DNA of 64,000 nt. It comes from an uncultured Holophagales bacterium. Lineage in GTDB: Bacteria; Acidobacteriota; Thermoanaerobaculia; Multivoradales; UBA5704. A program made the translations under genes and the position numbers. Positions 13,485 to 37,690 of the stretch are shown here, piece by piece; positions within the stretch are counted from its first letter, which is position 1; each line of letters begins with the position of its first letter. Where the stretch lies: positions 124,800-188,799 of the forward strand of contig CAWJGT010000032.1 in assembly GCA_963842525.1 (NCBI GenBank), written 5' to 3'. The notes beneath the pieces were generated by a model. The model ran no database searches and was not told the DNA's origin. It was given only the letters and a program-made list of their open reading frames with translations.

Positions 13485-13611
13485 TCCGATCACAAGCGAG
13501 GCCGGAGGTGCCGGGGGGATGGGATCGGGTTCCCCATCGCTGGATGCAACGAGGAGCGCCCCCTGGACCGGACTGTTGTGCGTGTCCGACTATAATTGCT
13601 CGCGCTCGCCC

Positions 13612-19165: not shown

Positions 19166-20200
<1,035 letters not shown>

Positions 20201-20235
20201 AGAGACGGCTGCTTACCCGCGGAAAGGAATCGAAC

Positions 20236-21369
20236 ATGGGGAGTGAGGTTCGCGAGGGGCTGGAAGGGGTCGTGGCGGCCACGACCCGGTTGAGCAGCGT
20301 GGACGGCGAAGCGGGTGTGCTGCTCCTCGCCGGTTTTCCGGTGGAAGAGGTGGCGCCCCAGGCGACGTTCGAGGAGCTCACCTGGCTGCTGTGGCACGGC
20401 GCGCTGCCCAAGGCCGCCGACCGCGAGGCCTTCACCCGGCGCCTCGCCGCGCGCCGGACGCTCCCGGCAGCCACGCTCGACCTGCTGCGGGGCCGCGGCG
20501 CTCCGGCGCTCCGGCGTGATGGACGCCCTGCGTATGGCCGCCGGCACTCTGAGCCTCGCCGAGGGAGCGGGGGAGCCGCAGGAGGATGCGGCGCTCCTGG
20601 TCGCAGCGTTCCCCACGATCGTCGCTTCCTACTGGCGCCTCCTCCAGGGCCAGGAGCCCCTTGCGCCGCGCGAGGGCCTCGGCCACACGGCGAGCTATCC
20701 TCCACCTCCTCACCGGACAGGAGCCCGACCCCGAGCGCGTCCGGGGCCTCGAAACCTATCTGAACACGGTGAGCGATCACGGCTTCAACGCCTCCACCTT
20801 CACGGCGCGCGTGATCGTCTCGACCCGTTCGGACCTGATTTCGGCGATCACCGGTGCGGTCGGCGCGCTGAAAGGTCCGCTGCACGGCGGCGCCCCTGGA
20901 CCGGCGCTCGACATGGTCTTCGAGATCGGCTCGGCGGACCGCGCCGAGGAGGTGCTCCGCGACAAGCTCGGCCGGGGCGAGCGGCTGATGGGCTTCGGCC
21001 ACCGCGTCTATCGCGTACGCGATCCGCGCGCCGACGTCCTGGGCGCGGCGGCGGAACGTTTCTATCGCCGAGCCGGCGACATGGCGCTCTACGACCTCGC
21101 CCGCTCGGTCGAGGCCACGGCACTGCGCCTCCTGCGCGAGCACAAGCCGGACCGGAAGCTGGAGACCAACGTCGAGTTCTACACCGCCTTGCTGCTCCAC
21201 GGCCTGGAGCTGCCCACCGAGCTGTTCACGCCCGGCCTTCGCGGTCGGCCGCGTCGCCGGCTGGACCGCGCACGCCTTCGAGCAACTCGAACGGGGCCGG
21301 CTGATCCGGCCCCAGTCCGAGTACGTGGGCGAGCGGGACCGCCGCTGGGTGGCTCTCGAGGATCGGTAG
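20236..21369 (+). CDS. Citrate synthase/methylcitrate synthase (several apparent frameshifts)
   Basis: GLEGVVAATTRLSSVDG; DHGFNASTF, KGPLHGGA, MGFGHRVY..DPRA, NVEFY; C-terminus GWTAHAFEQ..LIRPQSEYVG in another frame. Confidence 0.88.
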
Positions 21370-21373
21370 CACC

Positions 21374-21400
21374 CTGGGAGCGCGGGCGTCTCGCCCGCAC
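21374..21400 (+). repeat. REP family C (GGGAGCGCGGGCGTCTCGCCCGCAC)
   Basis: Near-identical copy at 58680-58707; both lie just after a stop codon. Confidence 0.65.
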
Positions 21401-21423
21401 CAGGGCCTCGCGAGTCGCAGGGC

Positions 21424-21858
21424 TCACTGCTCGGTTGTGGATTTCCAGGGATTCAACAGGGGGAGGCCAAGCTTCAAGAAGTCCTGAACATTGCGGGTCA
21501 CCAGAGTCAATCGATGGACTTCCGCGGTGGCGGCGAAGAAAGCATCCAAGATACCGAGATTGAGCCCGGCTTTTTTGCCACGTGCCATGAAGATCCCCCA
21601 GGCTTCGGCAATCCGGCCGTCGATGTCGAGGATACGCCCTTCGAAGCGGGCCGGCAGATCTCCAGTCAACCAGGAGGCCAAGCGGTCGCGGCGCTTCCCT
21701 TGAGGCATCAACTCGACTCCCCGGCGGATTTCGGCGAGGGAGGCGACGCTCAGGAATACCCGGTCCTCATCCACCGCCTTCAGCCACGCAACCACTTGCG
21801 GATCAGGCTGCGGTTTGACCCACTCGGAGACGACGTTCGTGTCGAGCAGGAAGCTCAC
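21424..21858 (-). CDS. vapC: VapC/PIN-domain toxin
   Basis: MSFLLDTNVVSE..SLAEI..LDAFFAATA..LVTRNVQDF. Confidence 0.92.
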   Translation of the reverse strand: MSFLLDTNVVSEWVKPQPDPQVVAWLKAVDEDRVFLSVASLAEIRRGVELMPQGKRRDRLASWLTGDLPARFEGRILDIDGRIAEAWGIFMARGKKAGLNLGILDAFFAATAEVHRLTLVTRNVQDFLKLGLPLLNPWKSTTEQ

Positions 21859-22130
21859 AGATCGAGCTCGCGAGGACTGTCTTGGGGGCGCTCAACCTCC
21901 AGGCCCGAATCCCGCAAAGGCGAGGCCGCGAAGAAATCGGCCAGGGTTCCCTGGCGGCGCGCTTTGCGCTCCCACTCTTCGGCCGCCACGACGACGACTG
22001 CCTTCCGGCCATGCCGGGTGATGATCTGAGGCCCTTCCTCTAAGGCGCTTTCGACGACTTCGCTCAGATGCGCTTTCGCGGCGGCAAGGGTCCAGGTTCT
22101 GTCATTCTGAGAGATGGTCATAGTGGTCAT
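21855..22130 (-). CDS. Phd/YefM-family antitoxin
   Basis: WTLAAAKAHLSEVVESALEEGPQIITRHGRKAVVVV; 4-bp overlap with vapC. Confidence 0.9.
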   Translation of the reverse strand: MTTMTISQNDRTWTLAAAKAHLSEVVESALEEGPQIITRHGRKAVVVVAAEEWERKARRQGTLADFFAASPLRDSGLEVERPQDSPRELDL

Positions 22131-23389: not shown

Positions 23390-23466
23390 CCTCGACAGAT
23401 TCTTTTTTTCGCCAGCGCTCGGCGTCTCGGCGCTATAATCAGGACCATCTGCGAAAGCGCCGGTGG

Positions 23467-24120
23467 ATGGAGACCGAGGCGATGCAAGAAGAGGTCCGCC
23501 GAGCCCTGGCCGGGGACGAGCCCGCGCTGAACCGGCTCGTCCAGATCCTGACGCCGGTCATCCAGAGCCGGGTGGCCCGCGGCCTCCTCCTGCGGCGCGT
23601 CGGGGCGGCCAGCGGGCGCAACGTCCGGCAGGAGGTCGAAGACCTCACCCAGGACATCTTCCTGGTCCTGTTCGCCGACGGGGGTAAGGTGCTCCGGAGC
23701 TGGCAGCCGGACCGCGGGCTGACCCTGCCCAATTTCGTCGGTCTCGTTGCCGAACGGCAGACAGCCTCGATCCTGCGCAGCGGCCGGCGGAGCCCCTGGA
23801 AGGAAGACCCCACCCTTGCCGAGGATCTCGAGCAGGTGGCCACGGAGAGCGGCCCTGAGGAGGTGACCGCGTCCCGCGAGCAGCTTCGGCTCCTCCTGCG
23901 CAGGCTTGGCGAGGAGCTGAGCCCCCTGGGAAGACATCTCTTCGATCTCCTCTTCCTGCGCGAGATGCCGTTCGACGAGGTGGTCCGGCAGACGAGCATG
24001 AGCCCTGACGCCGTCTATGCCTGGCGCAGCCGCCTGCGTCGCCTGGCCCGCCGGCTGCTCGACGAGATGTCAAAAGAAGGCCTCGACTCGCGAAGACATC
24101 TGAGGGATGGACGAGTATGA
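23467..24120 (+). CDS. ECF-type RNA polymerase sigma factor
   Basis: Region 2 EVEDLTQDIFLVLF; region 4 LSPLGRHLFDLLF..EVVRQTSMSPDAVYAWRSRLRR; TATAAT at 23434-23439. Confidence 0.88.
   Translation: METEAMQEEVRRALAGDEPALNRLVQILTPVIQSRVARGLLLRRVGAASGRNVRQEVEDLTQDIFLVLFADGGKVLRSWQPDRGLTLPNFVGLVAERQTASILRSGRRSPWKEDPTLAEDLEQVATESGPEEVTASREQLRLLLRRLGEELSPLGRHLFDLLFLREMPFDEVVRQTSMSPDAVYAWRSRLRRLARRLLDEMSKEGLDSRRHLRDGRV
24068..24099 (+). promoter_or_regulatory. Candidate ECF promoter copy 1 (inside sigma 3' end, upstream of anti-sigma)
   Basis: TGTCAAAAG-N16-AAGACA; resembles 27679 and 30011. Confidence 0.45.
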
Positions 24121-24914
24121 ACGATGACCGATGGCTTCGAGAGCTGGCCCAAGTGAATCGCGAGACGGAAGCCGAGGAACGGTCCCATCTCGATGAGCGC
24201 TGGGACCGGTTGAGCGCCGGAGAGCTCACCCCGGAGGAGGAAGCGGAGCTGCGAGCCCTGGCCGAAACCTCCGAGGAGGCCCGCGAAGCCTACGAGGCGT
24301 TCCGGCCGCTCGGACTGGACTTCCAGGCCAGCGTGGTGGGCGCTATCCAAAAAGCCCAGAAGCCGCCGCCCAGGGTCTTGCCCTTTCCGCAGCCTGCCGC
24401 CTGGCTATGGAAAGCCGCAGCCGCGACGGCTGCTGCGGCCGCCGCCCTGTTCCTATTCGTGCGTACCCCGGCGCCGCTGCCCGCGCTGCCCGCCTACACC
24501 GCCCATCTGAGCGTCGGAGCCCAGAGCTCCCGCGGCACCGCAGAACCGTCCTCCGGGCTGCCGGTCTTTATCCCCGGCACGCGGTTGACCCTGGACCTGA
24601 GGCCGGAGCAAGCCGTTGCCGAATCCGTCGAGGCGCAAGCCTTCCTTGCTCGTGGCGCAGACATCTTTCTCTGGAAGCCCGAGCCACCCCTCGACCTCCC
24701 CCCCGGGGGTGCCGTGCGTCTGCAAGGCAGGCTGGGAGAGGAGATCCGACTGCAACCTGGGGAGTGGAGGATCTGGATCGTCGTCGGCCGCCCGGGAAAG
24801 ATTCCACCCGCGGACAAGATCGTGGCCGAGTTGCGTGCAGGACGGACCCGGCATGCCGATTGGCATGCAGTGGTATCGGAGAACCTGCGGGTCGCAGACC
24901 GCGCATCGCCATGA
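24117..24914 (+). CDS. Putative membrane-anchored anti-sigma factor
   Basis: ATGA overlap with sigma; N-terminal helical WDRLSAGELTPEEEAEL, one TM segment (AAATAAAAAALFLFV), C-terminal beta-rich domain. Confidence 0.7.
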   Translation: MNDDRWLRELAQVNRETEAEERSHLDERWDRLSAGELTPEEEAELRALAETSEEAREAYEAFRPLGLDFQASVVGAIQKAQKPPPRVLPFPQPAAWLWKAAAATAAAAAALFLFVRTPAPLPALPAYTAHLSVGAQSSRGTAEPSSGLPVFIPGTRLTLDLRPEQAVAESVEAQAFLARGADIFLWKPEPPLDLPPGGAVRLQGRLGEEIRLQPGEWRIWIVVGRPGKIPPADKIVAELRAGRTRHADWHAVVSENLRVADRASP

Positions 24915-27664
24915 AAGGGTGCCGGACACGAGGTCGTCTTGGCCGGGTGCTCCATCTGGTGAGCCTCGCCGCTCTCCTGTCCTCCTGTCGCTCCGATACT
25001 TCCGTCCCACTCCCGGAAGTCGAATACAGCGGCTGCTGGGCGGTTTACTTCCCAGGGCCCGTCTGCGCTCTCTGGCCAGTCTCTAACCCAGTGCTCAGGC
25101 TCTGGGTGAAGGCCGATCCCGGCGCGAAGGTGGAGATCCGGGCAGGGGACCGGCTCCTGACCGCGAGCGGTGAGGAGTGGGCCGGAGGCCGGCGCTATCG
25201 CCTGTCGCTCCCGCAGGAAGACTCCGGGCTCACGGTGCGGCTGCGGCAGGCGGACGGCGCCTACGGTCCATCCTGGTCGATGGCGCTGACCAGGACCGAG
25301 ATGCCCGCCTGGTTGAGCCGGTTCGGCGAGCTTGCAGGCAGCGGCAAGAGAAGGGCGGCTCGAGAACTGCTGCAACAGCGCTGGAAAGAGGCGCCCCGGA
25401 GCGAACAAGGGATCCTCCTGCGATCCTTCGCCCTGCTGGCCCGCCTGGAGGGCAACTCCGGGGAGCACGAGTCCTATCTCCAGCGGGGGATTGCGGCAGA
25501 CCGTGCTGAAAACTGCCTGAGCTGCGAGGTCGAGAAAGCGACCTTGCTGGCGGATTCTTATATGGGTCAAGGGCGCTTCAGCGAAGCGCGCAAGGTGTTG
25601 GAGAGCCTGGCGCTCCCTCCCGGGGCTCCGGTCGACTCGAAGTGCCTGGTGGCTTATCTGAAAGGCGTTCTTGCCAGCAGGGTCGGTGACTACCGCACGG
25701 CCCTGGAGCAGCTTCGGAAGGACATCGCCCTGGCGGAAAAGGTCTGGATGGAGAAGGCGCGCTGGAAAGCCGAGCTGGCCCTAGCCAACCTGCTGCAGGA
25801 TCTCGGCCGCTCGCACGACGCCTCGTTACTGTTCAAACGCCTTCACACCGCCCCTCATGTCGAGACTCCCTGCGACAAAGGGGACCTCTTGACCAGTTGG
25901 GCCTGGTCCTGGCTGCTCGCGCGGGAAGCGGGCGAGGAAGCCGAGGATCCGACGCCCATGCTGAAGGAAGCCCTGGCCGCCTACAACCCCTCTTGCGCTC
26001 CGCCGGAGCGGCGGTTCAACGCCCGCCTCAACCTCGTTCTGGCATTGCAGCAGGCGGAGCGGTGGAGCGAGGACCGGCAGGCCCTGGACCAGGCCCGCCC
26101 CCTGGCTTCCCATGCGAGCCTGCGCCAACGCCTCTGGTGGTATGACCTCGAAGCGCGGACCGCGATCGCCGCGGGGCGGCCGGAGCGTGGGTTGCGTCTT
26201 TATGAGGAGCTCGCGGAGCTGGCCGAGCGCTCGCAGTCGTTCGAGGGTCGCTTTCGCGCCGCGTTCGGCCGGGCCCGCGCCGAGCTCGCCCTCGGCCGCC
26301 GGGCCGCGGCGCTCGCAGCTCTCGCCCAGGCGGACCGCTGCATCGACGAGCAGAGCCGGAATGTTCCGGCGTACGAGGGTCGCGACACCGTCGTCGGGCA
26401 GCGGGAGCAGGCCACGCGGCTCTACCTCCAGCTCCTCCTCGACGCGGGGCAGACGCAGGAAGCCTTCAGGCTGGCACGCCGCGCCCGTTCGCGGCTGCTG
26501 CGCCAGCTCACGGTCCGGGACCGGCTGGCGCTGCTGACCCCTCGGGAACAGGGGATCTGGGACCAGGCTCTGTCCGGGTATCGGGCGTTGCGCAACGAGG
26601 TCGATCAGCAGACGGCCGACGAATGGCAGCTTCCCGGGGACCAGAGGGAGCGCGCTCGGAAAGACCGGGCTTCGCAACTCGCTCAGGCCCGGGAGGATCT
26701 CGATCGCGCGATGGCCGAACTCGGAATCCCCAGGGACGACGACGAGATCCACCTTCTTCCGCCGCGTCCTGGCGAGGTCGTCCTGACCTACCATCCATTA
26801 CCCACGGGATTGTGGGCGGGATTTGCTGCCGATGAGCGAGGGCTCGAGGTCAGAACCTTCAGATTGCCTGCCAAGGGGTCCGCCGATTCCGTGGCGCTTG
26901 CCCAAGTCGTGCTCGAACCTTTCCGCCCGGCTCTTGAGCGAGCCGAGCGCGTGCGGGTGCTGCCCTATGGTCTCTTGCGGCTCGTTGATTTCCACACCCT
27001 GCCTTTTGGCGGAGAGCCGCTGCTCGCCCGGCACGTCGTGGTCTACGGACTCGACCTGCCGGCCCGGTCCTTCCCGGTCGACATGGACCGGCGTACGGCT
27101 CTCCTCGTCGCGGATCCGCAGGGTGACCTGGCGGCGGCGCGCCAGGAAGCATCAGTAGTTGCCGCGGCGGTTCGGACCTGGAAACCCGGCTGGACCCTGA
27201 AGCCGCTGGAGGGCACCGCGGCCCGCGCCGAGGACGTTCGCGCGGCGCTCCCTGACGCCGGTCTCTTCCACTACGCCGGCCACGGGACGTTCGCGGGCTT
27301 TGCCGGATGGGACAGTGTGCTCCCGCTGGCGGACGGCTCGTCTCTGACCCTCGGCGACCTTCTGGCCCTCCCCCGGGCTCCGGCCTGGGTGCTGCTCTCC
27401 TCCTGTGACGCCGCCCGCTCGTCCGAGCAGGCGCCGGGCGAAGGCATCGGCCTCGCCCATGCGTTCCTCCTGGCCGGTTCCCAGTTCGTAATCGCGGCCA
27501 CGCGGGAAGTCCCCGACCGCACCGCGCGCGACCTGCTGAGCGAGCTATATCGCGGATGGCAGCCGGGTGTGGACCTACCGCGCGAGTTCCAGCGGGCTCA
27601 GCAAATATGCAGCCATAGCCATTCTGCTTCTGATTGTGCGAGTTTTCGCCTGCTCGAGCCCTGA
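24911..27664 (+). CDS. TPR-CHAT (caspase-like) protease with lipoprotein-type signal
   Basis: ATGA overlap; LVSLAALLSSC lipobox; TPR-like helices; LLVADPQGDL, FHYAGHG (His), LLSSCDAA (Cys), GLAHAFLLAG. Confidence 0.88.
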   Translation: MKGCRTRGRLGRVLHLVSLAALLSSCRSDTSVPLPEVEYSGCWAVYFPGPVCALWPVSNPVLRLWVKADPGAKVEIRAGDRLLTASGEEWAGGRRYRLSLPQEDSGLTVRLRQADGAYGPSWSMALTRTEMPAWLSRFGELAGSGKRRAARELLQQRWKEAPRSEQGILLRSFALLARLEGNSGEHESYLQRGIAADRAENCLSCEVEKATLLADSYMGQGRFSEARKVLESLALPPGAPVDSKCLVAYLKGVLASRVGDYRTALEQLRKDIALAEKVWMEKARWKAELALANLLQDLGRSHDASLLFKRLHTAPHVETPCDKGDLLTSWAWSWLLAREAGEEAEDPTPMLKEALAAYNPSCAPPERRFNARLNLVLALQQAERWSEDRQALDQARPLASHASLRQRLWWYDLEARTAIAAGRPERGLRLYEELAELAERSQSFEGRFRAAFGRARAELALGRRAAALAALAQADRCIDEQSRNVPAYEGRDTVVGQREQATRLYLQLLLDAGQTQEAFRLARRARSRLLRQLTVRDRLALLTPREQGIWDQALSGYRALRNEVDQQTADEWQLPGDQRERARKDRASQLAQAREDLDRAMAELGIPRDDDEIHLLPPRPGEVVLTYHPLPTGLWAGFAADERGLEVRTFRLPAKGSADSVALAQVVLEPFRPALERAERVRVLPYGLLRLVDFHTLPFGGEPLLARHVVVYGLDLPARSFPVDMDRRTALLVADPQGDLAAARQEASVVAAAVRTWKPGWTLKPLEGTAARAEDVRAALPDAGLFHYAGHGTFAGFAGWDSVLPLADGSSLTLGDLLALPRAPAWVLLSSCDAARSSEQAPGEGIGLAHAFLLAGSQFVIAATREVPDRTARDLLSELYRGWQPGVDLPREFQRAQQICSHSHSASDCASFRLLEP

Positions 27665-27678
27665 TCTTTTCCGTTCCT

Positions 27679-27709
27679 TGTCAGAAACAATTCCCCGGCC
27701 GCAAAAGCC
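27679..27709 (+). promoter_or_regulatory. Candidate ECF promoter copy 2 (upstream of S8 peptidase)
   Basis: TGTCAGAAA-N15-AAAAGCC. Confidence 0.55.
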
Positions 27710-27794
27710 TAATGTGTAGTCGCGGCATTGGATCAGTCCCGGAAGCCCGCTCAACGAGGAGCGGCCTTCTTGCCGCGGCCGGGAGGATAAATCC

Positions 27795-29891
27795 ATGAGA
27801 TTCAAGGCCTTCTGCATCCTGGTCGTTCTTCTGGGATTCAGCGCTGTAGTCAGCCGTGCCGCTGTGCAGCCGCCTGCTCCTGCGGCCGGGCTCGAAAACA
27901 TCGAGAAGAAGTGCGTGGCCACGAAGCCGGAAAACCCTGATTCTGAGGGCGCATGCGTCCAGTGGCGCCAGATCGGCTTCTTGAAGAAGGGAGTCAAGGA
28001 CGGCTGCCCGGCCGCCGATGGTTGGGAGGAGCCCCACTCGCTGTTGAAGCTGGCTCTCCTCGAGGCAAATAAAAAAACCGAGGAAGAAATCGATCAGGAG
28101 AGAAATGCATATTTAGCTCAGGAAGGCTTGCCCAAGCCGCAGATGGTCAGGATCAAACCGGCCGATCGCGCCCAGCTTCGCAAGCTGGGGCTCGACCGGG
28201 TTTGCGTCTACGAGGCGGAAGCCCCAGGGGAGCCGAATCTGAAGTCCTTGCCACCCCAGATCAAGCCGAAGCCGGACCGGCTGGCGCTCTCCACCACCAG
28301 TGCCGGAGGTCTTCCCATGGACTCTCTCAGCCAGGCGGTCTGGCAAGCCCTGGCGATTCGTTTTCGGGACCAGACGCTCCAAAGCGATGCAAACGGCCCG
28401 AGTCGGGTCCCCATTCCTTTGCCGGTGGAGCCCAGCGTCCGGCTGACATTCATCGACAGCCAGCCGGATGGCGAAGGGTTTCCCCTCGCGCCGCACAACG
28501 GCTCGCCGCACGGTTTCACCCTCGCCTACCTCGCTCGTGGCATGGTCTGTCCCGTTCCCGAGCGCTGCGCGGCCCTGGTCGTGACGCGGCGCGCTCTGAG
28601 CTTCGGAGACTTCACCCCGAGGGCCGTAATGCCCTCGAACGAGCTCCCGAGCGACCAGAGCGGTCACGTGGGCCTGATGAGCGACCTCGCCGTTAAGATT
28701 GTAGCGGAGGTCTTGTACTGGCGGCACTTCGACCCGGACAAGAAGCTGATTCTCAACCTTTCGCTCGGCTGGGACGGCGAGCTGTTCGGGGATCTCAAGA
28801 AACACAAGCTTTCGAAGCTCGATCCCTCGGTACAGGCGGTCTACAAGGCCCTCCGCTTCGCCCGCCGCTCCGGTGCTCTCGTGATCGCCGCCGCGGGTAA
28901 CCAACGGGGCGGCAAGGTACCGTCCAACTCGCCGCTCCTTCCGGCAGCTTGGGAGCTGAAACGTCCCACCTGGCTGCCGTTCTTTCTCAGCCGCAAGCCG
29001 GTTTATGCCGTCGGCGGTGTGGACGGGCAACGCATGCCGCTTTCCAACTCTCGCCGCGGCGGGCTCCCGCGGCGAGCCACCTATGCGGACCATGCCGTGG
29101 CCGCAACCGAGGACCCCAACGATCCTACGGCGCTCTACACCGGTACGTCGGTCTCGGCGGCCGTAGCGTCCTCGATCGCCGCGATGGTCTGGCACCTGCG
29201 GCCGGATCTCAGCCCTTCCGAAGTGATGCGGCTGGTCACCCGGTCCGGCGACCCATTGCCCTTCCGGGCCGACTTCTACCCCTGGAAGAAGCTCTGGCCT
29301 CTCTCCAAGATCCTTAAGGCGCCGCACGCGAGGCGGCTTTCGCTCTGCCGGGCCGCCGAATCGGCCTGTGGCCCGGACGGCAGCAGGTGCCTCGCTCTGT
29401 CCTCCCTGCCGGCGTGTTCTGACCCTCCCGCCCCGTCACATGAGATCGAGGCGATCCTGCGTAGTCTCCCTGCCACGAAGAGCTCGGCGAGCCCGTCATT
29501 AAGTCCCCCTGAGCTCGTGGATGTGGCGAGCCAGCGGTGGGTCACGCCCCAACCGGAGGCGACTCCCTGTCCCAGTTGCGCGCTGGTTCCCGAGCCGTCT
29601 GGCTTCAGCGCGGCCGGTGCGCGGCTGGTGCTGGAAATCAGCAATGACTGGGACCCCGAGCAGAAGGTCCTTCTCACCGGCGCTACGCTTTACATCGATG
29701 GCTCGCCATCCTACGAGCTGACACACGACCAAGTGGTCCGCGGATCGGTGCACAGGATCTCGGTCGCGGCCGGAGGAAGACTGCTCCGAGCCCGGAGTGC
29801 TCAGATCACGTTCATGGCGAAAGACATAGCGACGGGAGAGCCGATGTCGATTCTGAACCCGGTCCTCGTCGTTGAACCCGTGGCACGATAA
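27795..29891 (+). CDS. Secreted S8 subtilisin-like serine peptidase, Cys-rich
   Basis: Signal peptide; TFIDSQ (Asp), PHGFTLA (His), ILNLSLGW, IAAAGN (oxyanion), GTSVSAA (Ser). Confidence 0.85.
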   Translation: MRFKAFCILVVLLGFSAVVSRAAVQPPAPAAGLENIEKKCVATKPENPDSEGACVQWRQIGFLKKGVKDGCPAADGWEEPHSLLKLALLEANKKTEEEIDQERNAYLAQEGLPKPQMVRIKPADRAQLRKLGLDRVCVYEAEAPGEPNLKSLPPQIKPKPDRLALSTTSAGGLPMDSLSQAVWQALAIRFRDQTLQSDANGPSRVPIPLPVEPSVRLTFIDSQPDGEGFPLAPHNGSPHGFTLAYLARGMVCPVPERCAALVVTRRALSFGDFTPRAVMPSNELPSDQSGHVGLMSDLAVKIVAEVLYWRHFDPDKKLILNLSLGWDGELFGDLKKHKLSKLDPSVQAVYKALRFARRSGALVIAAAGNQRGGKVPSNSPLLPAAWELKRPTWLPFFLSRKPVYAVGGVDGQRMPLSNSRRGGLPRRATYADHAVAATEDPNDPTALYTGTSVSAAVASSIAAMVWHLRPDLSPSEVMRLVTRSGDPLPFRADFYPWKKLWPLSKILKAPHARRLSLCRAAESACGPDGSRCLALSSLPACSDPPAPSHEIEAILRSLPATKSSASPSLSPPELVDVASQRWVTPQPEATPCPSCALVPEPSGFSAAGARLVLEISNDWDPEQKVLLTGATLYIDGSPSYELTHDQVVRGSVHRISVAAGGRLLRARSAQITFMAKDIATGEPMSILNPVLVVEPVAR

Positions 29892-29954: not shown

Positions 29955-29994
29955 AGCGCCGGCCTCCGTCGACACGGAGGCCGGCGCTTCTCTT
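29955..29994 (+). terminator. Intrinsic terminator hairpin
   Basis: AGCGCCGGCCTCCGT-CGAC-ACGGAGGCCGGCGCT followed by TCTCTT. Confidence 0.7.
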
Positions 29995-30010: not shown

Positions 30011-30042
30011 TGTCAGAAATCCACCACGAAGCGCGAAAAGCC
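30011..30042 (+). promoter_or_regulatory. Candidate ECF promoter copy 3 (upstream of VWA/beta-barrel gene)
   Basis: TGTCAGAAA-N16-AAAAGCC, about 40 bp before the ATG at 30084. Confidence 0.55.
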
Positions 30043-30083: not shown

Positions 30084-33026
30084 ATGCGCCTCGCAAGAAA
30101 GAAGGGATTTCTCCCGGCACTCCTCGTGCTGTCCCTGTGGTTTCCGGGCCAGGCCTGGGGTGTCCCTCCCCGGGTCGAGTGTGCCCATGCCCCGGCCCAC
30201 CTATCCACTTTCACCCCTGATTGCAGCGACGTCCTCGACTGCGACCCGCTGATCAATGTGCCAGGCTTCGTGCGCATCGGAGATCCGGTCGGCGCTCCGG
30301 GCGACGAGGAGCCGCGCTTCTTCTTTGACGAGGCGGGCGCCGGTCGCTTCCACACCGAGCTCTTCTCCCGCATCTACAACAACGGCGGCCATCCGGCGCC
30401 GAGCGGCCAGGTGACGGTGCGCTTGTCGGTCAAGGCCAACGCGACCGGACCCGGCGACACCTCCGATCCCTTCACGACGATCGGCGATTACGTGATGGAT
30501 ATCCCGGTCATGCCCGAAGACTGGCTCACCGCCAACGCCTCCCATGATCAGCCTATGACGAAGCCGGTGTGCTGGATCCTGGGCGCCGGAGAGCTGTTTC
30601 CCAAGAAGTTCCTGCTCAAGGCGGAGGTGCTCTGGCCCCAGGACGAAGCTCCGGGCAACAACACCCTGTATCAGTTTTATGACCTGACCGCCGAGGCCCT
30701 CCCTGCCGACATCGCCTTTTCCATGGATCTGTCCGGCAGCATGGCCATTGCGGTCCCTGGCGGGGGCTCCCGCCTCGCCGTGGCCCAGGACCGGGCCCGG
30801 ATGTTCATCGATCTGATCGAGATCGAGGATGGGGTACCTCACAACCGCCTGGGCCTCTTCGGCTTCGCCACCGGCATGCCGGCGGCGGTGAAGAGCGACT
30901 TCACCGGCACCTGGAAGTCTTCGGCCGCAGCGTCGCACTCGAGCCTCCTGAGCGAAACGGCGGTGCTCTTTCCTTTCCAGGAGATTGGCTCCGCCGCCGA
31001 CAGGCTGGCCGGACGGATTGCAGTTTCCGACCCCGTGGTAGTCAGGCCCTATGGCTGCACGCCGGTGGGGCAGGGCCTGCTGCGCGCGAAGAGTGAGCTT
31101 TTGAGCCTCTCTGATCCGCCGGGCACGGAGCGGAGCCGGGCAATCGTGCTCTTCAGCGACGGATTTCAGAACGTCGGTCCCTACGTGAACGAGGTGCCGC
31201 CGGAGCTGTGCGGCGGCCCGAGCTCGCTCGCTCTGATCCATGCCGAGGAGACGTTCAAGAACAACACCCCCACTCTGCCGATCTACTCCGTCTTCTTCGG
31301 CGCCGAGAGCGGTTGGGCTCACCAGCTCATGCTGGACCTCCAGGCCCAGACTGGCGGCGACTACCTCTATTACACCGGCACTTCGCTCGAGCTGGCCGCC
31401 GCCTACTACCAGATCCGCCATCTGGTGGCGTCCAACGCCCTGCTCTTCCTGGAGGAGGACGGCAAGGCCGTCGGCGCGAGCCCGACCGCGGCTGTCCCGG
31501 TCTACTTCGATGCCGCCTCCTTGACGGCCACTGTGGGCCTGGCCTGGCCGGTGGGAGCACAGGGCACCCTTCTCACCGTCGAGGCAAGGCCGGCAGGGGG
31601 GAACAATCAGCAGCCCTGGCAAGACCTGGGCGGCCAGCTCGGCACGGCCAGGGTCGACCCGCCCGGGAAAAACCGCTTCCATGATGCGTACCGGGTCTTC
31701 CGCTTCACTCCGGGCACTAGCAAGACCTGGGAGCTGAGGGTGCGGCAGGTGGCGCCGGGCCAGGGGACGGTCCCCTACACGCTGGCCGTCTTCGCCCGCA
31801 CCGAGGAGGTGCGCCTCAAGGCCTCGCTCGGAGCGGAGGGCTTCGCCGCCGGCAAGGCCCTGCCCATCTATGCGGATCTCCGGAGCGCCGGCCATCCGGT
31901 GCCGAACGCGGACGTACGGGCGACCGTCACCGCGCCGGCCCGGCCTTTCAGCACCACCCTGCGGCGCTATGCGGACCGGCTGACCGTCGATCGTGGAGCC
32001 GGCGACCAGACCGTAGCCCGCCTGGCCGCGCAGCTCCAGGGAGTCCTGGCGCAGGAGGTGGGCTCTCCGGATCTCTACCCGGTACGGCAGCTCACGGTCA
32101 CCCTCAACGACCGCGGCCAGGGCGCGGACCGGCTCCCCGGCGACGGGGTGTACACCGGCGAGGTCCCCGCGGCCGAGACCACGGTGGCAGGCAACTACGG
32201 CGTCATCGTGACCGCCACCGGCAACCGGTCCGGCGTACCGTTCGAGCGCACGGAGAAGCTGGGCTCGATCGCGGCCATCGGGCCGATCGATCCGGAGCGG
32301 ACCGAAGTTCGCTTCTCCGCTCCCCGGCAGCTCGGTGACCAGTTGCGCGCCGTGGACGTCACCGTGCTCGCCATGGATCGCTTCGGCAATGCCACCTTCC
32401 CAGGGGCGGCGTCGACGATCACCCTGCTTCCTCAGCCTGGGGGCGGCACCCTGGCCGGCGCGCTGGCCGACGATCTGACCTCTACATACAGCCAGACGCT
32501 GGTCCTCGCCCCGGGCGAACAACCCGCGGTCACGTTGCGGATCGATGGGCAGGACCTGGGCAGCTTCCAGCCCGGGTCCAAGCCGGGTGCGTTCGCGCGC
32601 TTCGAGGCGAGCGTCCATGCCGGGCTGGCCGTACCCCATGGGGTTTTCGGGGAGAGCCTGGACGAGGGGCCGGCCTTCGCCGTGGATGCCACCTATCGCT
32701 TTACATCCTATGTCGCCCTACGGAGTGAGCTCGGCTTCTCGCTCTTCGACGATCCGGTCGGCGGCGACCGGCGGATGATCCATTTCGTCCCTTACCTCCA
32801 GCTCCGCAACCCGGTGCCGGTCTGGCAGCCCTATTTCGAAGCGGGGCCGGGCGTCTATGACCTCGAGAGCGCCGGCACCGCCGGAGGCTTCTCGGCGGGC
32901 GTCGGCGTGCAGCGACAGATCGCGCCGCACTGGCGGCTGGACCTGGCCCTCCATGGCCACCATGCCGGCGGCGGCCTCGACGCCACCTACAGCCAGACCA
33001 AGATCGGTTTCCAGATCACCTTTTAG
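30084..33026 (+). CDS. Exported VWA-domain protein with Ig-like domains and C-terminal outer-membrane beta-barrel
   Basis: AAAGGAG RBS; signal peptide; MIDAS DLSGSM..TPVG..LFSDG; LNDRGQGADRLPGDGVY loop; alternating beta-strands ending ..KIGFQITF. Confidence 0.8.
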   Translation: MRLARKKGFLPALLVLSLWFPGQAWGVPPRVECAHAPAHLSTFTPDCSDVLDCDPLINVPGFVRIGDPVGAPGDEEPRFFFDEAGAGRFHTELFSRIYNNGGHPAPSGQVTVRLSVKANATGPGDTSDPFTTIGDYVMDIPVMPEDWLTANASHDQPMTKPVCWILGAGELFPKKFLLKAEVLWPQDEAPGNNTLYQFYDLTAEALPADIAFSMDLSGSMAIAVPGGGSRLAVAQDRARMFIDLIEIEDGVPHNRLGLFGFATGMPAAVKSDFTGTWKSSAAASHSSLLSETAVLFPFQEIGSAADRLAGRIAVSDPVVVRPYGCTPVGQGLLRAKSELLSLSDPPGTERSRAIVLFSDGFQNVGPYVNEVPPELCGGPSSLALIHAEETFKNNTPTLPIYSVFFGAESGWAHQLMLDLQAQTGGDYLYYTGTSLELAAAYYQIRHLVASNALLFLEEDGKAVGASPTAAVPVYFDAASLTATVGLAWPVGAQGTLLTVEARPAGGNNQQPWQDLGGQLGTARVDPPGKNRFHDAYRVFRFTPGTSKTWELRVRQVAPGQGTVPYTLAVFARTEEVRLKASLGAEGFAAGKALPIYADLRSAGHPVPNADVRATVTAPARPFSTTLRRYADRLTVDRGAGDQTVARLAAQLQGVLAQEVGSPDLYPVRQLTVTLNDRGQGADRLPGDGVYTGEVPAAETTVAGNYGVIVTATGNRSGVPFERTEKLGSIAAIGPIDPERTEVRFSAPRQLGDQLRAVDVTVLAMDRFGNATFPGAASTITLLPQPGGGTLAGALADDLTSTYSQTLVLAPGEQPAVTLRIDGQDLGSFQPGSKPGAFARFEASVHAGLAVPHGVFGESLDEGPAFAVDATYRFTSYVALRSELGFSLFDDPVGGDRRMIHFVPYLQLRNPVPVWQPYFEAGPGVYDLESAGTAGGFSAGVGVQRQIAPHWRLDLALHGHHAGGGLDATYSQTKIGFQITF

Positions 33027-33041
33027 AAAGGAGCAACGGTC

Positions 33042-34730
33042 ATGATCAGACAAGTACGGCATCAGCCCCGCTTGCGCCGGGCCGGGTTGCGAGCCTGCGC
33101 CGCCTTCATCGCCCTGCTGGCGTTCTCCGTGAACGCAGCCGCCGATCCGTTCACCCTCTATGGCCAGGTCTTCCAGGTCGATCCGGAGTTGGCCGCGGAC
33201 GAATCCATCGAAGACGCCGACCTGCCGGTCGGTCTGCGCGTGCCCTTCGTCCAGGTCCAGGTGGTGGACCCGGACACCGGCGAGAGCCGGGGAGCCCCGG
33301 TCTTCGCCGGCGCCAACGGCAACTTCACCCTCCACTTCGACGCTCCGGCCGGATCCACCGCGGCGATCCAGGTCTTCCGATCGGTCAATACGACGACGGG
33401 CGATCCGGAGGTGCAGATCTATCCGGAAGCCCGGAAAGACCTCAATACCTTTCCTCTCACCAATGCGCCTACAGGAGTGGCCGTCAAGGTGGCCAGCGAG
33501 GAAACGCTTCTCCTCGACCCGGGCAGCAGCTTCAACGCTTCCGTGGGCATCGTCTTCACGCAGGTCGGATTGGTGGAAATCCCCTACATCTCCCAGGATC
33601 TGGCTCGGCCGGACAAGGGGCGCATCGGCCTGGCCGATCTCTCCGGCGACCTCACCCGGGCCGCCGAGCAGAACCTCTCCAGTGACCCGTCAGCGGCCAG
33701 CTACAATGCCGTCTTCAAAGACGCTCCATTCGGCGGCCTGCTGCATGTCTTCGGCGCCTTCGGCAAACTCTCCGGAATTCCGCCGTGCACCGGCGCGGTC
33801 GACTGGTATCGCGTGAAGATCCGTCCGGTCAGCTTCGACGGTGCCGGCAATCCAGTCTATGGCGCGGCCTTCGAAGGCACCGACCTGCTGCGCAAGATGC
33901 GTTTTGAGGTTGACTATGTCCCCACGTTCCGGGCCGATTCCTTTCTGGAGAAGATCGGACCCTACGACGGCGACGACCTGACCTCAGGCGTGGCAGTGCC
34001 GATCCACAATCTGTACCGGGTCAACCCTTCTCCCACTACACCCGGCCAGACCGTGGTCTATAGCATGGCCGACCAGCGCTACAGTTGGGCGACGGGGGGA
34101 AACCCTCCGGGCCTCTACGAAATCAGCCTGGAGTACTTCCGGGACGCAGGGACCACGGACCCCACCCAGCCACGCGTGACGAAGATCGCCGACGCTCCAT
34201 GCTTCGGCGGCACCCTGCCACCGGAGGACGCGGACGAGGTGGCTTTGCACAAGCTCCTGGTCCGCATCGACAACACCCCCCTGGAGTCCAGCATGGATGG
34301 GCTCTTCGTACGCACCGGCGCTTCCCGTTCTTTCAACTATCTCGAGCCGGGGCACCTATGCGACATCATCGACCTCAACGCCGGAAGCACGATCGAGATC
34401 GACTTCAAAGCCTGGCACAATGCCGGATATCTACGCTCCTACAGACTCACCGCCATTTCCAATGCAAAGGACAACGTGCCCTTTGCCGCGGCAGCGGACA
34501 ACTACGACAACCACAGCGCCTGTGGCCCCCTCTGGCGGGGCGGCACGGGCGCCTGCCCGGCAGTCGCTCCGCCAGGGGCCGCGCCGGTCATCACGGCTAC
34601 CAGCACGTCACCCTTCCCCAGGTGCGCCTACGGCTTCGATCTGGTAGTGCAAGGGCGGGCGCAGAACGGCTACGGCTATCTCCAGGGCGCCCATCATCGG
34701 CAGATCTACTATGTAAACCCGCTGCCGTAA
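33042..34730 (+). CDS. Exported hypothetical beta-rich protein
   Basis: 562 aa; AAAGGAG RBS 15 bp after upstream stop; signal peptide. Confidence 0.75.
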   Translation: MIRQVRHQPRLRRAGLRACAAFIALLAFSVNAAADPFTLYGQVFQVDPELAADESIEDADLPVGLRVPFVQVQVVDPDTGESRGAPVFAGANGNFTLHFDAPAGSTAAIQVFRSVNTTTGDPEVQIYPEARKDLNTFPLTNAPTGVAVKVASEETLLLDPGSSFNASVGIVFTQVGLVEIPYISQDLARPDKGRIGLADLSGDLTRAAEQNLSSDPSAASYNAVFKDAPFGGLLHVFGAFGKLSGIPPCTGAVDWYRVKIRPVSFDGAGNPVYGAAFEGTDLLRKMRFEVDYVPTFRADSFLEKIGPYDGDDLTSGVAVPIHNLYRVNPSPTTPGQTVVYSMADQRYSWATGGNPPGLYEISLEYFRDAGTTDPTQPRVTKIADAPCFGGTLPPEDADEVALHKLLVRIDNTPLESSMDGLFVRTGASRSFNYLEPGHLCDIIDLNAGSTIEIDFKAWHNAGYLRSYRLTAISNAKDNVPFAAAADNYDNHSACGPLWRGGTGACPAVAPPGAAPVITATSTSPFPRCAYGFDLVVQGRAQNGYGYLQGAHHRQIYYVNPLP

Positions 34731-34895: not shown

Positions 34896-36911
34896 ATGAA
34901 ACGGTTCTGGAAAGCAGTTTCCCTGTTGATCCTCGGGCTGGTGCTCCTCATGGCACGCCCGGCATCCGTCCCCGCGACGACCACGCCTCGGGACGGTACC
35001 CTCTCGCCCTACTTCTTCGTCGAGAACGGCGACCCCGAGGTCGACCGGCTGCCGCTCAAGGAGACGAAGGCCGACGTCGTCATCGCGGGCGTCATCGCCG
35101 ACGTCGTCGTCACCCAGGTCTATCGCAACGAAGGTAACCGGCCGATCCATGCGCGCTACGTGTTCCCGGCCTCCACCCGGGCCGCGGTGCACGGCATGAC
35201 GATGCAGGTGGGCGCGCGGCGCATCCGCGCGAAGATCCGCGAACGCACTGCGGCGCGGCAGGAGTTCGCCGCGGCGCGCAAGGCAGGCAAGAGCGCGGCG
35301 TTGCTCGAACAGCAGCGGCCCAACGTCTTCACCATGGACGTGGCCAACATCCTGCCGCAGGACGAGATCCGCGTCGAGCTCCACTACAGCGAGCTGCTCG
35401 TGCCGACCGACGGGACGTACGAATTCGTCTATCCCACCGTGGTCGGGCCGCGCTACTCGCGCGACCGCGAAGCGACGGCCGCGGAGAACGATCGTTGGGT
35501 GAAGAGCCCCTACCTGCACGCGGGCGAGGCGCCGACCTACACATTCGACATCGAGGCGCGCATTGCCGCCGGCATGCCGATCGAGGAGGTTCTCTGCCCG
35601 TCCCACCGGACGTATGTCGATTGGCGGAACAGGAACGCGACGAAGGTCACGCTCGATCCCGGCGAAACGGACGGCGGCAATCGCGACTACATCCTGCGCT
35701 ACCGCCTGCAGGGCCAGCAGGTGAAGACCGGGCTGCTGCTCTATCCGGGCAAGGAGGAGAGCTTCTTTCTCTTGATGATGCAGCCGCCGGTGCGGGTGGC
35801 GCCGCGGCAGATCCCGCCGCGCGAATACATTTTCGTCCTCGACGTGTCCGGGTCCATGTCCGGTTTTCCGCTCGACACGGCGAAGGTGCTGATGCGGGAG
35901 CTCGTCGTCGGCCTGCGCCCGACCGACCGTTTCAATGTGATCCTGTTCTCAGGCGGCTCGCGCCTGCTCGCGCCGAAATCGCTGCCCGCCACACCGGCCA
36001 ACATTCGCTGGGCGACCGAGGAGATCGATCGTGAGTACGGCGGCGGTGGAACGGAGCTCGGCGCGGCCCTGGATCGCGCCCTGGCGCTGCCGGGCAACGA
36101 AGGCGTGTCGCGGACGACGATCGTCGTCACGGACGGCTATATTTCGGCGGAAGCCGGCGTCTTCGAAAAGATCCGTGCCAACCTGAACCGTTCCAACCTG
36201 TTCGCCTTCGGCATCGGCAGCTCCGTGAACCGCCATCTCATCGAAGGCATGGCGCGCGCCGGGCAGGGTGAGCCGTTCGTCGTCACCGAGCCCTCCGAGG
36301 CCCGGGCCGTCGCGAAGAGCCTGCAGGAGTATGTGCAATCGCCGGTGCTCACGGACATCAAGGTCGACACACAGGGCTTCAAGGTGTACGACGTCGAGCC
36401 GTTGTCGATCCCGGATCTGTTCGCCGACCGCCCTCTGGTGGTCTTCGGCAAATGGCGCGGCGACACGTCCGGCACGATCCGCGTCACCGGCCTGGGAGGT
36501 GAGGGACGCTATGAAAAGGTTTTCGATGTAGATGAGGCGGAATCGTCCGCGGACAACCGGGCGCTGCGCTACCTGTGGGCGCGAGCGCGAGTGGCACGCC
36601 TCGCGGACGACGGGCGAGCAGACGACGAGACGCGCCGGCAGGTTACGACGCTCGGTCTGACCTACGAGTTGCTGACCGAGTACACGTCCTTCATCGCGGT
36701 GCACGAGGTGGTGCGGAACCCCGACGGCTCGGCGCCGACGGTCAACCAACCGCTGCCCCTGCCGCAAGGCGTTTCGGACCTCGCGGTCGGGAATTCCGTC
36801 CCCGAGCCGGAGCTGCCGCTGCTGCTGGCCCTCGTGCTCCTGCTGCTTGGCTTCACGCCCGCCGGGCGGGCACGGCTGCGGGGCGGGCTCGGGCTTGTGT
36901 CGAAAGGCTGA
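34896..36911 (+). CDS. VIT + VWA domain protein with PEP-CTERM-like sorting signal
   Basis: AAGGAGG RBS; signal peptide; VIT (ADVVVTQVY..YVFP..LLEQQRPNVF); VWA FVLDVSGSM..GGGTE..VVTDG; C-terminal VPEP + TM + Arg-rich tail. Confidence 0.88.
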   Translation: MKRFWKAVSLLILGLVLLMARPASVPATTTPRDGTLSPYFFVENGDPEVDRLPLKETKADVVIAGVIADVVVTQVYRNEGNRPIHARYVFPASTRAAVHGMTMQVGARRIRAKIRERTAARQEFAAARKAGKSAALLEQQRPNVFTMDVANILPQDEIRVELHYSELLVPTDGTYEFVYPTVVGPRYSRDREATAAENDRWVKSPYLHAGEAPTYTFDIEARIAAGMPIEEVLCPSHRTYVDWRNRNATKVTLDPGETDGGNRDYILRYRLQGQQVKTGLLLYPGKEESFFLLMMQPPVRVAPRQIPPREYIFVLDVSGSMSGFPLDTAKVLMRELVVGLRPTDRFNVILFSGGSRLLAPKSLPATPANIRWATEEIDREYGGGGTELGAALDRALALPGNEGVSRTTIVVTDGYISAEAGVFEKIRANLNRSNLFAFGIGSSVNRHLIEGMARAGQGEPFVVTEPSEARAVAKSLQEYVQSPVLTDIKVDTQGFKVYDVEPLSIPDLFADRPLVVFGKWRGDTSGTIRVTGLGGEGRYEKVFDVDEAESSADNRALRYLWARARVARLADDGRADDETRRQVTTLGLTYELLTEYTSFIAVHEVVRNPDGSAPTVNQPLPLPQGVSDLAVGNSVPEPELPLLLALVLLLLGFTPAGRARLRGGLGLVSKG

Positions 36912-36916
36912 GAGTG

Positions 36917-37690
36917 ATGTTTCGAAAGCCCGTGCCCGGCCTGGGCCCTCACCCCCCTGGCCCCCCTCTCCCATCCTCACTCCCAGCCTCCCGGGAGAGG
37001 GGGGAAGAGGCACTGCCAGAGAGGTTCTTGGGTGGGGGCTCCCCTCTCCCGGGGGTTGGGAGTGAGGATGGGAGAGGGGCCGGGGGTGAGGGCCCAGGGC
37101 ACCGGCCGGGTCGACCCTGGATGTCCTGGGGCACGGCGCTGCTCGCGGCCTACGGTTTGAAGCTGGGCTACAGCCGGGCGTCGGTCGAGGGTCTCACGTG
37201 GATCCTCGCGCCGACGGCCCGGGCTGTCGGCTGGCTGCGCGGCGAGACGCTCACCCCGGGCCCGGAGGGCTGGGTGGCGCCGGACGGCTCGTACGTCATC
37301 GCTCCGGCCTGCGCCGGGGTGAACTTCATGATCTTGGTTTTGATCGTCGCCGTGCTCGGCTTCGCGTACCGGTTGCGTTCCCCGGGACAGCGGCTCGCCT
37401 GGTGGCTTGCCTCGCTGTGCGGGGCCTGGGCCCTCACGATCGCCGTCAACACGCTGCGCATCCTGGCTGCCGTCGAGCTGTACCGTCTCGATCCTGTTGC
37501 TTTCACTCCGGAGCAGGCACACCGGCTCCTTGGCACGATGCTGTACCTGGCCGCGCTCTGGGGCGTCTTCGGGATGCTCGACCGGCTCACCGCGCGGCAA
37601 CGCACCGGCGCCTACCCCATGCTCGCCGCCCTCGTCCTGGTCCCGGGCGTCTACCTGGGGATGACCGTGGTGGTACCGCTCTTGAATGGA
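36917..37690 (+). CDS. Exosortase K-like transpeptidase, 3'-truncated at a junction with creC
   Basis: LKLGYSRASVEGLTWILAPTA, catalytic IAPACAGVNF, VNTLRI, QAHRLLG; start at 36917 or 37121. Confidence 0.75.
36932..37102. repeat. Palindromic REP family B (CCCTCACCCC..CCTCTCCC..GGGAGAGG..GGGGTGAGGG)
   Basis: Long inverted repeat; related copies at 41919-42124 and 48386-48445. Confidence 0.85.

Follow-up and report, generated by a model that had tools for sequence, protein, structure and literature searches.

A conserved sigma, anti-sigma, TPR-CHAT and subtilase gene cassette of Acidobacteriota, probably a transmembrane switch opened by proteolysis

Organization and conservation of the cassette

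The 64,000-nucleotide stretch analyzed here (hereafter the window; positions 124,800 to 188,799, forward strand, of contig CAWJGT010000032.1 in assembly GCA_963842525.1, from an uncultured Holophagales bacterium of the phylum Acidobacteriota) carries a cassette of four genes, encoding a sigma factor of the extracytoplasmic function (ECF) type, a predicted membrane anti-sigma factor of 265 aa, a predicted exported TPR-CHAT protease and a predicted exported S8 family protease (subtilase). This four-gene order is a tightly conserved switch of soil bacteria, in which the TPR-CHAT protein, a caspase-like protease located outside the cytoplasm, probably cuts the membrane inhibitor, thereby freeing the sigma factor and turning on secreted proteases. 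The reading preferred here, held with a probability of roughly 0.6, is that regulated proteolysis opens a transmembrane ECF switch, whose site-1 protease is encoded by a separate exported gene.

Reading the open reading frames (ORFs) of the window recovered all four genes where the original prediction, drawn from the DNA alone, had placed them, together with the features it had listed: the LSSC lipobox and His/Cys dyad of the TPR-CHAT protein, the Asp/His/Ser triad of the S8 protease and the ATGA overlaps, which are real at both joints (sigma/265-aa gene and 265-aa gene/TPR-CHAT). The CHAT and S8 genes are separated by an intergenic gap of 130 bp. A scan of the genome collection yielded 54 loci, whose titles all name Acidobacteriota, Thermoanaerobaculia or Holophagales. 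The sigma gene lies directly upstream of the anti-sigma gene in 54/54 of them, and CHAT followed by S8 was found downstream in all 50 loci with enough flank, the remaining four stopping at a contig edge; since the order is kept in 50/50 genome loci, the cassette is not a chance assembly. Among the metagenome loci with enough flank (from the best 80 of 119 loci, overlap with the genome set not being removed), sigma was present in 62/62, CHAT in 41/42 and S8 in 23/23. The catalytic residues of both CHAT and S8 are invariant among the aligned homologues.

The occurrence of the cassette is patchy: the anti-sigma profile was matched by 10 of 201 genomes of the class, two of these weakly, and the sigma factor (E ≤ 1e-30) by four of 301 genomes of the phylum, one of which falls outside the class and shows the same gene order with two S8 genes. 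The genes upstream of the cassette differ from locus to locus, and therefore it appears to move as a block. Conservation of the neighbourhood, proposed at the outset as a check across Acidobacteriota and Myxococcota, thus holds in the former phylum (50/50 genome loci), while the latter yielded look-alike anti-sigma clusters only.

The sigma factor and its membrane anti-sigma partner

The first gene (23467..24120, plus strand) encodes a sigma factor of 217 aa, a divergent member of the ECF type: the best generic model, TIGR02937, scored E 6.2e-9 and 35.7 bits, below its cut-off of 42.9, and the nearest solved chain is an ECF sigma factor (PDB 9isn, E 3.2e-6). Its homologues number 1925 at E ≤ 1e-20 among 8000 scored sequences.

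The second gene (24117..24914, plus strand) encodes the 265-aa protein, predicted to be a membrane anti-sigma factor from its AlphaFold2 model, hydropathy and a complex model. The AlphaFold2 model (predicted local distance difference test, pLDDT, 82.8) comprises a zinc-free helical domain at residues 1-80 (helices 3-80), a single Ala-rich transmembrane (TM) segment at about 97-115 and a periplasmic immunoglobulin (Ig)-like beta-sandwich at 122-263, the last resembling Ig folds generically (best Z 9.9, root mean square deviation (rmsd) 2.8, 113 residues aligned). The Ala-rich TM segment, with hydropathy of at least 1.6 and basic residues on its N-terminal side, recurs in 45 of 49 full-length homologues (54 less five excluded for length or start calls). 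Homologues of this protein numbered 517 among 8000 scored candidates and 2549 representatives at E ≤ 0.001. No meaningful PDB sequence match was obtained, and a whole-protein Foldseek search gave no match at E ≤ 0.001.

Modelling the sigma factor together with residues 1-88 of the 265-aa protein gave a complex score of 0.81, against 0.50 for the best control. The runs share at least 92% of contacts, the pLDDT of the partner is at least 86, and the interface spans both sigma domains; the mark set for this score was reached by 116 of 157 solved pairs and by two of 215 mismatched pairs. The model supports binding of the sigma factor by the N-terminus of the 265-aa protein, acting as an anti-sigma factor, as had been assumed.

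It could still be argued that the 265-aa protein is a membrane adaptor or inhibitor of CHAT that offers Arg139 (described below) as a bait loop, the sigma factor being controlled otherwise, as proposed for the group ECF54. No Pfam family was matched by any of 50 members, the window protein included, so that a Pfam anti-sigma family is lacking in 50/50; nor does the family possess a zinc motif, the window protein having no Cys and the alignments no conserved Cys or His; and ECF54 is described without an anti-sigma factor in the accessible part of PMC7826278. Against this, the complex model passes its mark, the look-alike clusters of the anti-sigma protein include zf-HC2 proteins (18% of members), the architecture is that of an N-in protein with one TM segment, and most of the invariant residues fall in the N-terminal helices, which makes the adaptor reading highly improbable.

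The TPR-CHAT protease and its location

The third gene (24911..27664, plus strand) encodes the 917-aa TPR-CHAT protein, whose CHAT domain matches PF12770 at E 6.6e-28. It consists of a lipoprotein-type signal with the lipobox ending at Cys26, a small beta domain, a TPR superhelix, three long helices (515-603) and CHAT; the H791/C832 dyad is present in 53/53 aligned full-length proteins. The structural model (pLDDT 87.7, predicted template modelling score 0.85) matches best with DdvA of Myxococcus xanthus, both by PDB sequence profile (E 4.1e-10) and by Foldseek (E 1.6e-14). VIA-align gave a Z of 25.8 with Csx30-bound Csx29 (rmsd 4.1 over 416 residues), 23 with the separase protease domain (residues 512-917, rmsd 3.0-3.1), 21.6 with DdvA and 21.1 with gingipain R, the Arg-cutting separase and gingipain R being among the closest protease structures. 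Helices 515-603 lie inside the range aligned to the separase protease domain, in a whole-range alignment rather than a residue-level superposition, and for this reason may represent the three-helix motif that has no counterpart in DdvA.

An export signal, looked for as a check on the location of the protein, is present: besides the lipobox of the window protein, the N-terminus of 46 of 49 stand-alone CHAT proteins is hydrophobic, and a crude pattern picks out a lipobox-like Cys in 36 of the 49. Seven distinct fusions, five of them database proteins (1141-1249 aa) and two encoded at genome loci (L070, L072), join the anti-sigma domain, TM segment and Ig domain straight to TPR-CHAT, none with an internal signal peptide, and therefore place CHAT on the outer face of the membrane, beside the Ig domain. 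Frameshift artefacts were ruled out as their origin, the signal peptide being gone at the joint. Both fused loci retain sigma upstream and S8 downstream. The further description of the protease as ligand-gated was left without support.

RseB is a protective cap or co-sensor on its anti-sigma factor, and the CHAT protein could have a similar part, or be an output that cuts foreign proteins, with a housekeeping periplasmic protease making the first cut. In favour of such a part, CHAT would be transcribed with the anti-sigma gene from a putative internal promoter (see below), and the TPR-CHAT region of DdvA sterically blocks RseP, its protease activity being undemonstrated in the accessible part of PMC11506125. 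A pure cap, however, would not need an invariant dyad, and the invariant Arg loop calls for a dedicated reader; a cap or output function is accordingly held to be distinctly unlikely.

Arg139 as the candidate cut site

The 265-aa protein displays one residue with the properties of a candidate P1 position, Arg139 (codon at 24531..24533, plus strand). It is situated about 24 aa past the TM segment, just outside the membrane, in a flexible loop of pLDDT 65-70. Arg occupies this position in 149 of 151 non-gap rows of an alignment of distant representatives, the flanking positions being highly variable; the following residue is Gly, Ser or Ala in 146 of 151 rows, and both non-Arg rows have another Arg 1-3 residues away. 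In closer alignment sets it is found in 67/67 and 49/50 rows, and it is kept in every anti-sigma::CHAT fusion examined. According to the accessible part of PMC11506125, separase cleaves after Arg. From its conservation and loop position, Arg139 is a candidate scissile residue for CHAT. The invariant CHAT residue D869 may correspond to the Arg-binding Asp of the separase S1 pocket, a match given no weight here.

Two loci (L038:8455-9100 and L042:8549-9140, plus strand) harbour an extra anti-sigma paralogue upstream of sigma, which has the TM segment and Ig domain and is devoid of the sigma-binding helices; the loop Arg is missing from both. These paralogues are possibly decoys or CHAT inhibitors.

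A promoter motif linked to the cassette

Upstream of the sigma gene, a housekeeping (sigma70-type) -10 box, TATAAT, was detected at 23434..23439 (plus strand) by hexamer scan, and 45 of 54 loci have a TATAAT/TATACT-like hexamer at 12-65 nt 5' of the sigma start, against a background of about 0.007 per interval scanned. A different, bipartite motif, GTCAGAA-N14-GCGAA, is found elsewhere in the cassette and in 0/54 loci upstream of the sigma gene, which rules out autoregulation of sigma from there.

The gap from the CHAT stop to the S8 start contains this motif in 49/50 genome loci and 31/31 metagenome loci, the copy in the window (27680..27705, plus strand) being a putative sigma-dependent promoter for S8 with a GCAAA variant of the -10 box. 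If up to one mismatch is allowed, 48 of 54 genome loci and 66 of 70 metagenome loci have another copy within the sigma gene or at its end, about 48 nt ahead of the anti-sigma start; the window copy (24069..24094, plus strand, one mismatch), inside the 3' end of the sigma gene, would serve anti-sigma and CHAT. Further copies follow the S8 gene in 33 of 49 loci, as in the window, where a perfect match (30012..30037, plus strand) precedes the cargo genes. As the alignment was anchored on the first box (GTCAGAA), the evidence is the second box at a fixed distance, conserved in 48-49 of 49 rows per column. Counted at up to one mismatch, the motif is strongly co-oriented, with 151 plus-strand against two minus-strand copies in 994 kb of genome loci and 117 against none in 504 kb of metagenome loci. 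In the copy internal to the sigma gene the spacer is 14 in 44/44 matches, and TCA encodes the Ser beneath it in 47 of 49 rows, whereas seven of the 637 other Ser codons of these genes are TCA; this codon bias shows that the constraint acts on DNA and rules out a protein-level cause of the motif.

In the genome of origin, eight perfect copies with spacer 14 were found against 0.385 expected, and zero or one at each other spacer from 10 to 18. Five of the eight belong to two cassettes, that of the window and a second one described below; with only three perfect copies outside them, a genome-wide regulon was set aside. These three (C3:1223919, C9:399473 and C34:748288) are possible remote targets or chance matches. 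A match at window position 26849, inside the CHAT gene, has one mismatch with 0.32 expected and was read as chance. At up to one mismatch, five distant cassettes (L070, L071, L075, L076 and L087) have no copy, L072 has one and L077 three, so the consensus is not universal. Its bipartite form, fixed spacing and common orientation lead us to assign GTCAGAA-N14-GCGAA to the cassette sigma factor as the promoter it would read. The proposal that sigma induces an effector protease is in keeping with the sigma-type promoter that precedes S8 in nearly all loci.

The second cassette of this genome (C3:1717318-1725421, minus strand) encodes a sigma and an anti-sigma factor 57 and 36% identical to those of the window, respectively. 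An opposite-strand gene is inserted between anti-sigma and CHAT, and the CHAT reading frame is broken; CHAT has its own motif copy, two further copies aim at the inserted and the divergent upstream genes, and S8 follows without the motif. The third and distant cassette (C9:1651471-1657475, minus strand) is arranged differently, with sigma followed by a CHAT lipoprotein, then anti-sigma with the Arg loop kept, and finally an S8-like protein; no motif copy was seen in it by eye.

The S8 protease and cargo genes

The fourth gene (27795..29891, plus strand) encodes a Cys-rich S8 protease of 698 aa with 13 Cys (PF00082, E 3e-12; triad D221/H239/S452), predicted to be exported. The triad and oxyanion Asn (D221/H239/N369/S452) are present in 48/48 aligned proteins (48 of 50, two short ones excluded), 47 of which have a hydrophobic N-terminus and 28 a lipobox-like sequence. 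A PDB sequence search gave no match at E ≤ 0.01, and the Atlas matches were generic S8 clusters only.

That S8 is never parted from the cassette, and stays next to the fused forms, invites the idea of a two-protease cascade, in which CHAT would mature or activate S8, and S8 or both enzymes would clip the anti-sigma factor in a positive feedback. The predicted export of S8, its lipobox-like sequences and its invariant triad would suit this, and SAVED-CHAT is described as activating a second protease, PCaspase, in the accessible part of bioRxiv 2023.06.23.546230. Nevertheless, S8 has a sigma-type promoter of its own in 49/50 loci, as expected of an output; the fusions examined link CHAT to anti-sigma and none to S8; and hydrolases also occur among the other motif-led cargo genes. 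Such a cascade is therefore considered unlikely.

Beyond S8, the window contains a terminator-like hairpin (29955..29988, plus strand; a perfect inverted repeat of 15 bp with a pyrimidine run after it, read by eye) and two probable cargo genes. The first (30084..33026, plus strand), probably part of the regulon, encodes an exported protein of 980 aa with a C-terminal outer-membrane beta-barrel domain (PF13505, E 4.7e-8) and a choice-of-anchor X motif (NF041940, E 6.8e-5), not conserved at other loci. The second (33042..34730, plus strand), starting 15 bp after it and probably co-transcribed, encodes a 562-aa protein with no match in Pfam, NCBIfam or PADLOC and one weak relative, in locus L006.

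Further motif copies precede 49 ORFs, which vary. Among the 38 scanned there are three more S8 proteases, one papain-like and one trypsin-like protease, one lipase, three proteins with transthyretin- or carboxypeptidase-regulatory-like domains and one weak Cache match; 28, among them a recurrent family of nine, match no Pfam family. The members of this family (610-770 aa, behind motif copies in nine loci, among them L011:18716-20710, L013:7935-10247, L016:7704-9797, L021:15222-17525 and L031:14130-16430) have no obvious signal peptide and no Pfam or PADLOC match, and a small membrane protein of 130 aa often follows their genes. PADLOC matched none of 16 core and cargo proteins, 10 of the 49 cargo ORFs being among those tested, and a defence role was set aside on this count. 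As the cargo is rich in hydrolases, the cassette is suggested to act in extracellular protein degradation, competition or envelope remodelling.

Comparison with known systems

In the literature covered, from which most subscription papers were absent, nothing on the cassette was found beyond DdvA, craspase, ECF54 and SAVED-CHAT. The closest relative is DdvS/DdvA of Myxococcus xanthus (PMC11506125, PMC6061681; PDB 8rot, 8rw5), which, in the accessible parts of these sources, shares with the cassette, as predicted here, an ECF sigma factor, a single-pass anti-sigma factor and a periplasmic TPR-CHAT with a His/Cys dyad. A periplasmic CHAT acting as site-1 protease has already been proposed there, with the RseP step shown, and DdvA-like proteins are reported mainly in Myxococcota (PMC11506125, as far as accessible). 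The fused topology of DdvA is found in the seven fused relatives of the cassette, whereas the window cassette has split genes and a CHAT with its own lipoprotein signal. On the same partial basis, DdvA has a cytoplasmic CHCC zinc domain, a helical scaffold and a CHAT devoid of the three-helix motif of separase and craspase, in contrast to the zinc-free anti-sigma factor of the cassette, its Ig-like beta domains and its helices 515-603, likely that motif. The cassette also differs in its fixed S8 partner and its phylum. Finally, the DdvA regulon is described as a CBASS (cyclic-oligonucleotide-based antiphage signalling) and CRISPR (clustered regularly interspaced short palindromic repeats) defence island, while none was found around the cassette (0/16 in PADLOC; one array in 61 loci).

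Craspase, in the accessible parts of PMC10028731 and bioRxiv 2022.08.17.504292, works through a stand-alone TPR-CHAT, Csx29, that cuts a separate anti-sigma factor, Csx30, at a short, flexible loop within its C-terminal domain, releasing an ECF sigma factor (CASP-sigma). It acts in the cytoplasm under the control of Cas7-11 and target RNA, whereas the CHAT of the cassette is predicted to be exported, its anti-sigma factor spans the membrane and no cas genes were seen. No Csx30 chain was among the profile or fold matches of the 265-aa protein, an absence that does not exclude homology. The craspase parallel drawn in the original prediction consequently stands for the likeness of TPR-CHAT and anti-sigma and gives way to DdvA/DdvS as the closer relative. 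Independence from CRISPR holds in the material scanned: the window is free of arrays, as are all but one of the 61 loci, and no cas-like recurrent neighbour was found among the shared gene clusters. The one array, small and CRISPR-like (L003:3170-3445), consists of four direct repeats of 37 nt whose spacers are unique; it lies some 6 kb upstream of the cassette, and no cas gene was noticed in the flanking ORFs.

ECF54, as described in the accessible parts of the PMC7826278 supplement (Casas-Pastor 2021) and PMC8999054, groups sigma factors encoded with TPR-CHAT and a subtilase, and the product of the +1 gene has a small beta-domain; proteolytic control was suggested for these sigma factors. 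The TPR-CHAT and subtilase neighbourhood is common to both, and the -35 elements share TCAG; the promoters otherwise differ (GTATCAG / CTCC in ECF54, GTCAGAA / GCGAA in the cassette), as does the taxonomy (100% Actinobacteria against 54/54 genome loci titled as Acidobacteriota taxa). The +1 gene of ECF54 has a carboxypeptidase-regulatory-like domain, and the group has no recognized anti-sigma factor, whereas that of the cassette has an Ig-like fold, no such Pfam match in 50 members, and models as an anti-sigma factor. With RseA/DegS/RseP-type proteolysis the cassette shares a single-pass anti-sigma factor with an Ala-rich TM segment, and RseP; the site-1 enzyme there is a PDZ serine protease, while in the cassette a cysteine protease of the caspase family, encoded in the same operon and dedicated to this task, would take its place.

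The cassette would work like DdvA and craspase, yet on the features compared it belongs to neither, nor to ECF54. It is a split version of a switch proposed, and unproven, in Myxococcus, and the concept itself is already known; the term "new signalling system" was overstated, because the DdvA/DdvS hypothesis is published and the ECF54 neighbourhood catalogued, as the accessible parts of these sources attest.

Other features of the window and the genome

The window also encodes a separate TIR-CHAT-TPR protein of 1283 aa (44433-48281, plus strand; PF13676, PF12770) of cytoplasmic conflict-type architecture, and the genome about a dozen more CHAT proteins. A low-GC stretch (11604-14763) contains a restriction protein of the GmrSD type, together with an AbiEi antitoxin next to which lies an unannotated partner; an IS200 transposase lies at 8815-9267. 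Next to a flavin oxidoreductase gene, some 1.3 kb upstream of sigma, lies a PIN toxin and Phd/YefM antitoxin pair (21424-22130, minus strand). A citrate synthase-like gene (20200-21560) and a histidine kinase region (34896-38315) seem split over frames, possibly through long-read assembly errors; a VIT-VWA protein is annotated at 34896-36911.

Proposed mechanism and its significance

In the preferred reading, basal sigma factor would be supplied from the housekeeping promoter and tethered at the inner membrane by the zinc-free helical domain of the 265-aa protein, as modelled. The TPR-CHAT lipoprotein would sit on the periplasmic side, docked on the anti-sigma Ig domain, as the fusions suggest. 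A signal from outside the cytoplasm, which is probably a peptide or protein sensed through the TPR superhelix, would align the His/Cys dyad, and the activated CHAT would cleave the anti-sigma factor after Arg139. By analogy with DdvA, loss of the Ig domain would open the Ala-rich TM segment to RseP, which is present in the genome of origin above cut-off, and set sigma free. Sigma would then read GTCAGAA-N14-GCGAA: one promoter would re-make anti-sigma and CHAT, giving a self-limiting loop, and the others would express S8 and lineage-specific cargo.

Several points weigh against this reading. In the accessible part of PMC11506125, the CHAT activity and the trigger of DdvA are yet undemonstrated, and dyad mutants are without phenotype at rest; craspases, equally close structurally, cut after Met or Leu rather than Arg, which leaves Arg specificity uncertain. 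A second Arg of the 265-aa protein, Arg225, shows fair conservation as well (125/150 rows), and a conserved Arg therefore need not mark a cut site. The Arg-less paralogues of L038 and L042 are two related genes only. One of the 42 metagenome loci (L109) has an anti-sigma gene with the loop Arg and no CHAT gene behind it. The crude lipobox pattern was failed by 13 of 49 CHAT proteins and the hydrophobicity test by three, these N-termini being probably mis-called starts. The complex score, finally, may reflect likeness to solved sigma:anti-sigma pairs.

The site-1 role of DdvA was left open because enzyme and substrate are one protein, the active site is incomplete and no trigger is known (PMC11506125, as far as accessible). 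In the cassette, enzyme and presumed substrate are two proteins, the active site seems complete, and comparison offers Arg139 as candidate scissile residue along with a promoter consensus. The question could therefore be addressed head-on in E. coli or in vitro, and an unproven hypothesis becomes an assay of two proteins in which the residue and the promoter to examine are specified. If true, caspase-family proteases would join the site-1 enzymes of transmembrane signalling, the workings of ECF54-type sigma/CHAT/subtilase neighbourhoods would be hinted at, and an orthogonal protease-gated transcription switch would be at hand.

A fuller picture is offered tentatively and at less than even odds. 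A lipid-anchored caspase-family enzyme with a complete separase-like site may act in trans as site-1 protease at one invariant Arg, in a CRISPR-free circuit. The sigma factor would renew its own inhibitor through a promoter concealed within the sigma gene and switch on an exchangeable set of proteases and uncharacterized 550-770-aa proteins, with an Arg-less, sigma-blind anti-sigma copy acting in some genomes as a decoy that tunes the protease. If true, the cassette would be a caspase-gated alarm of the envelope, sensing attack or competition before anything has entered the cytoplasm.

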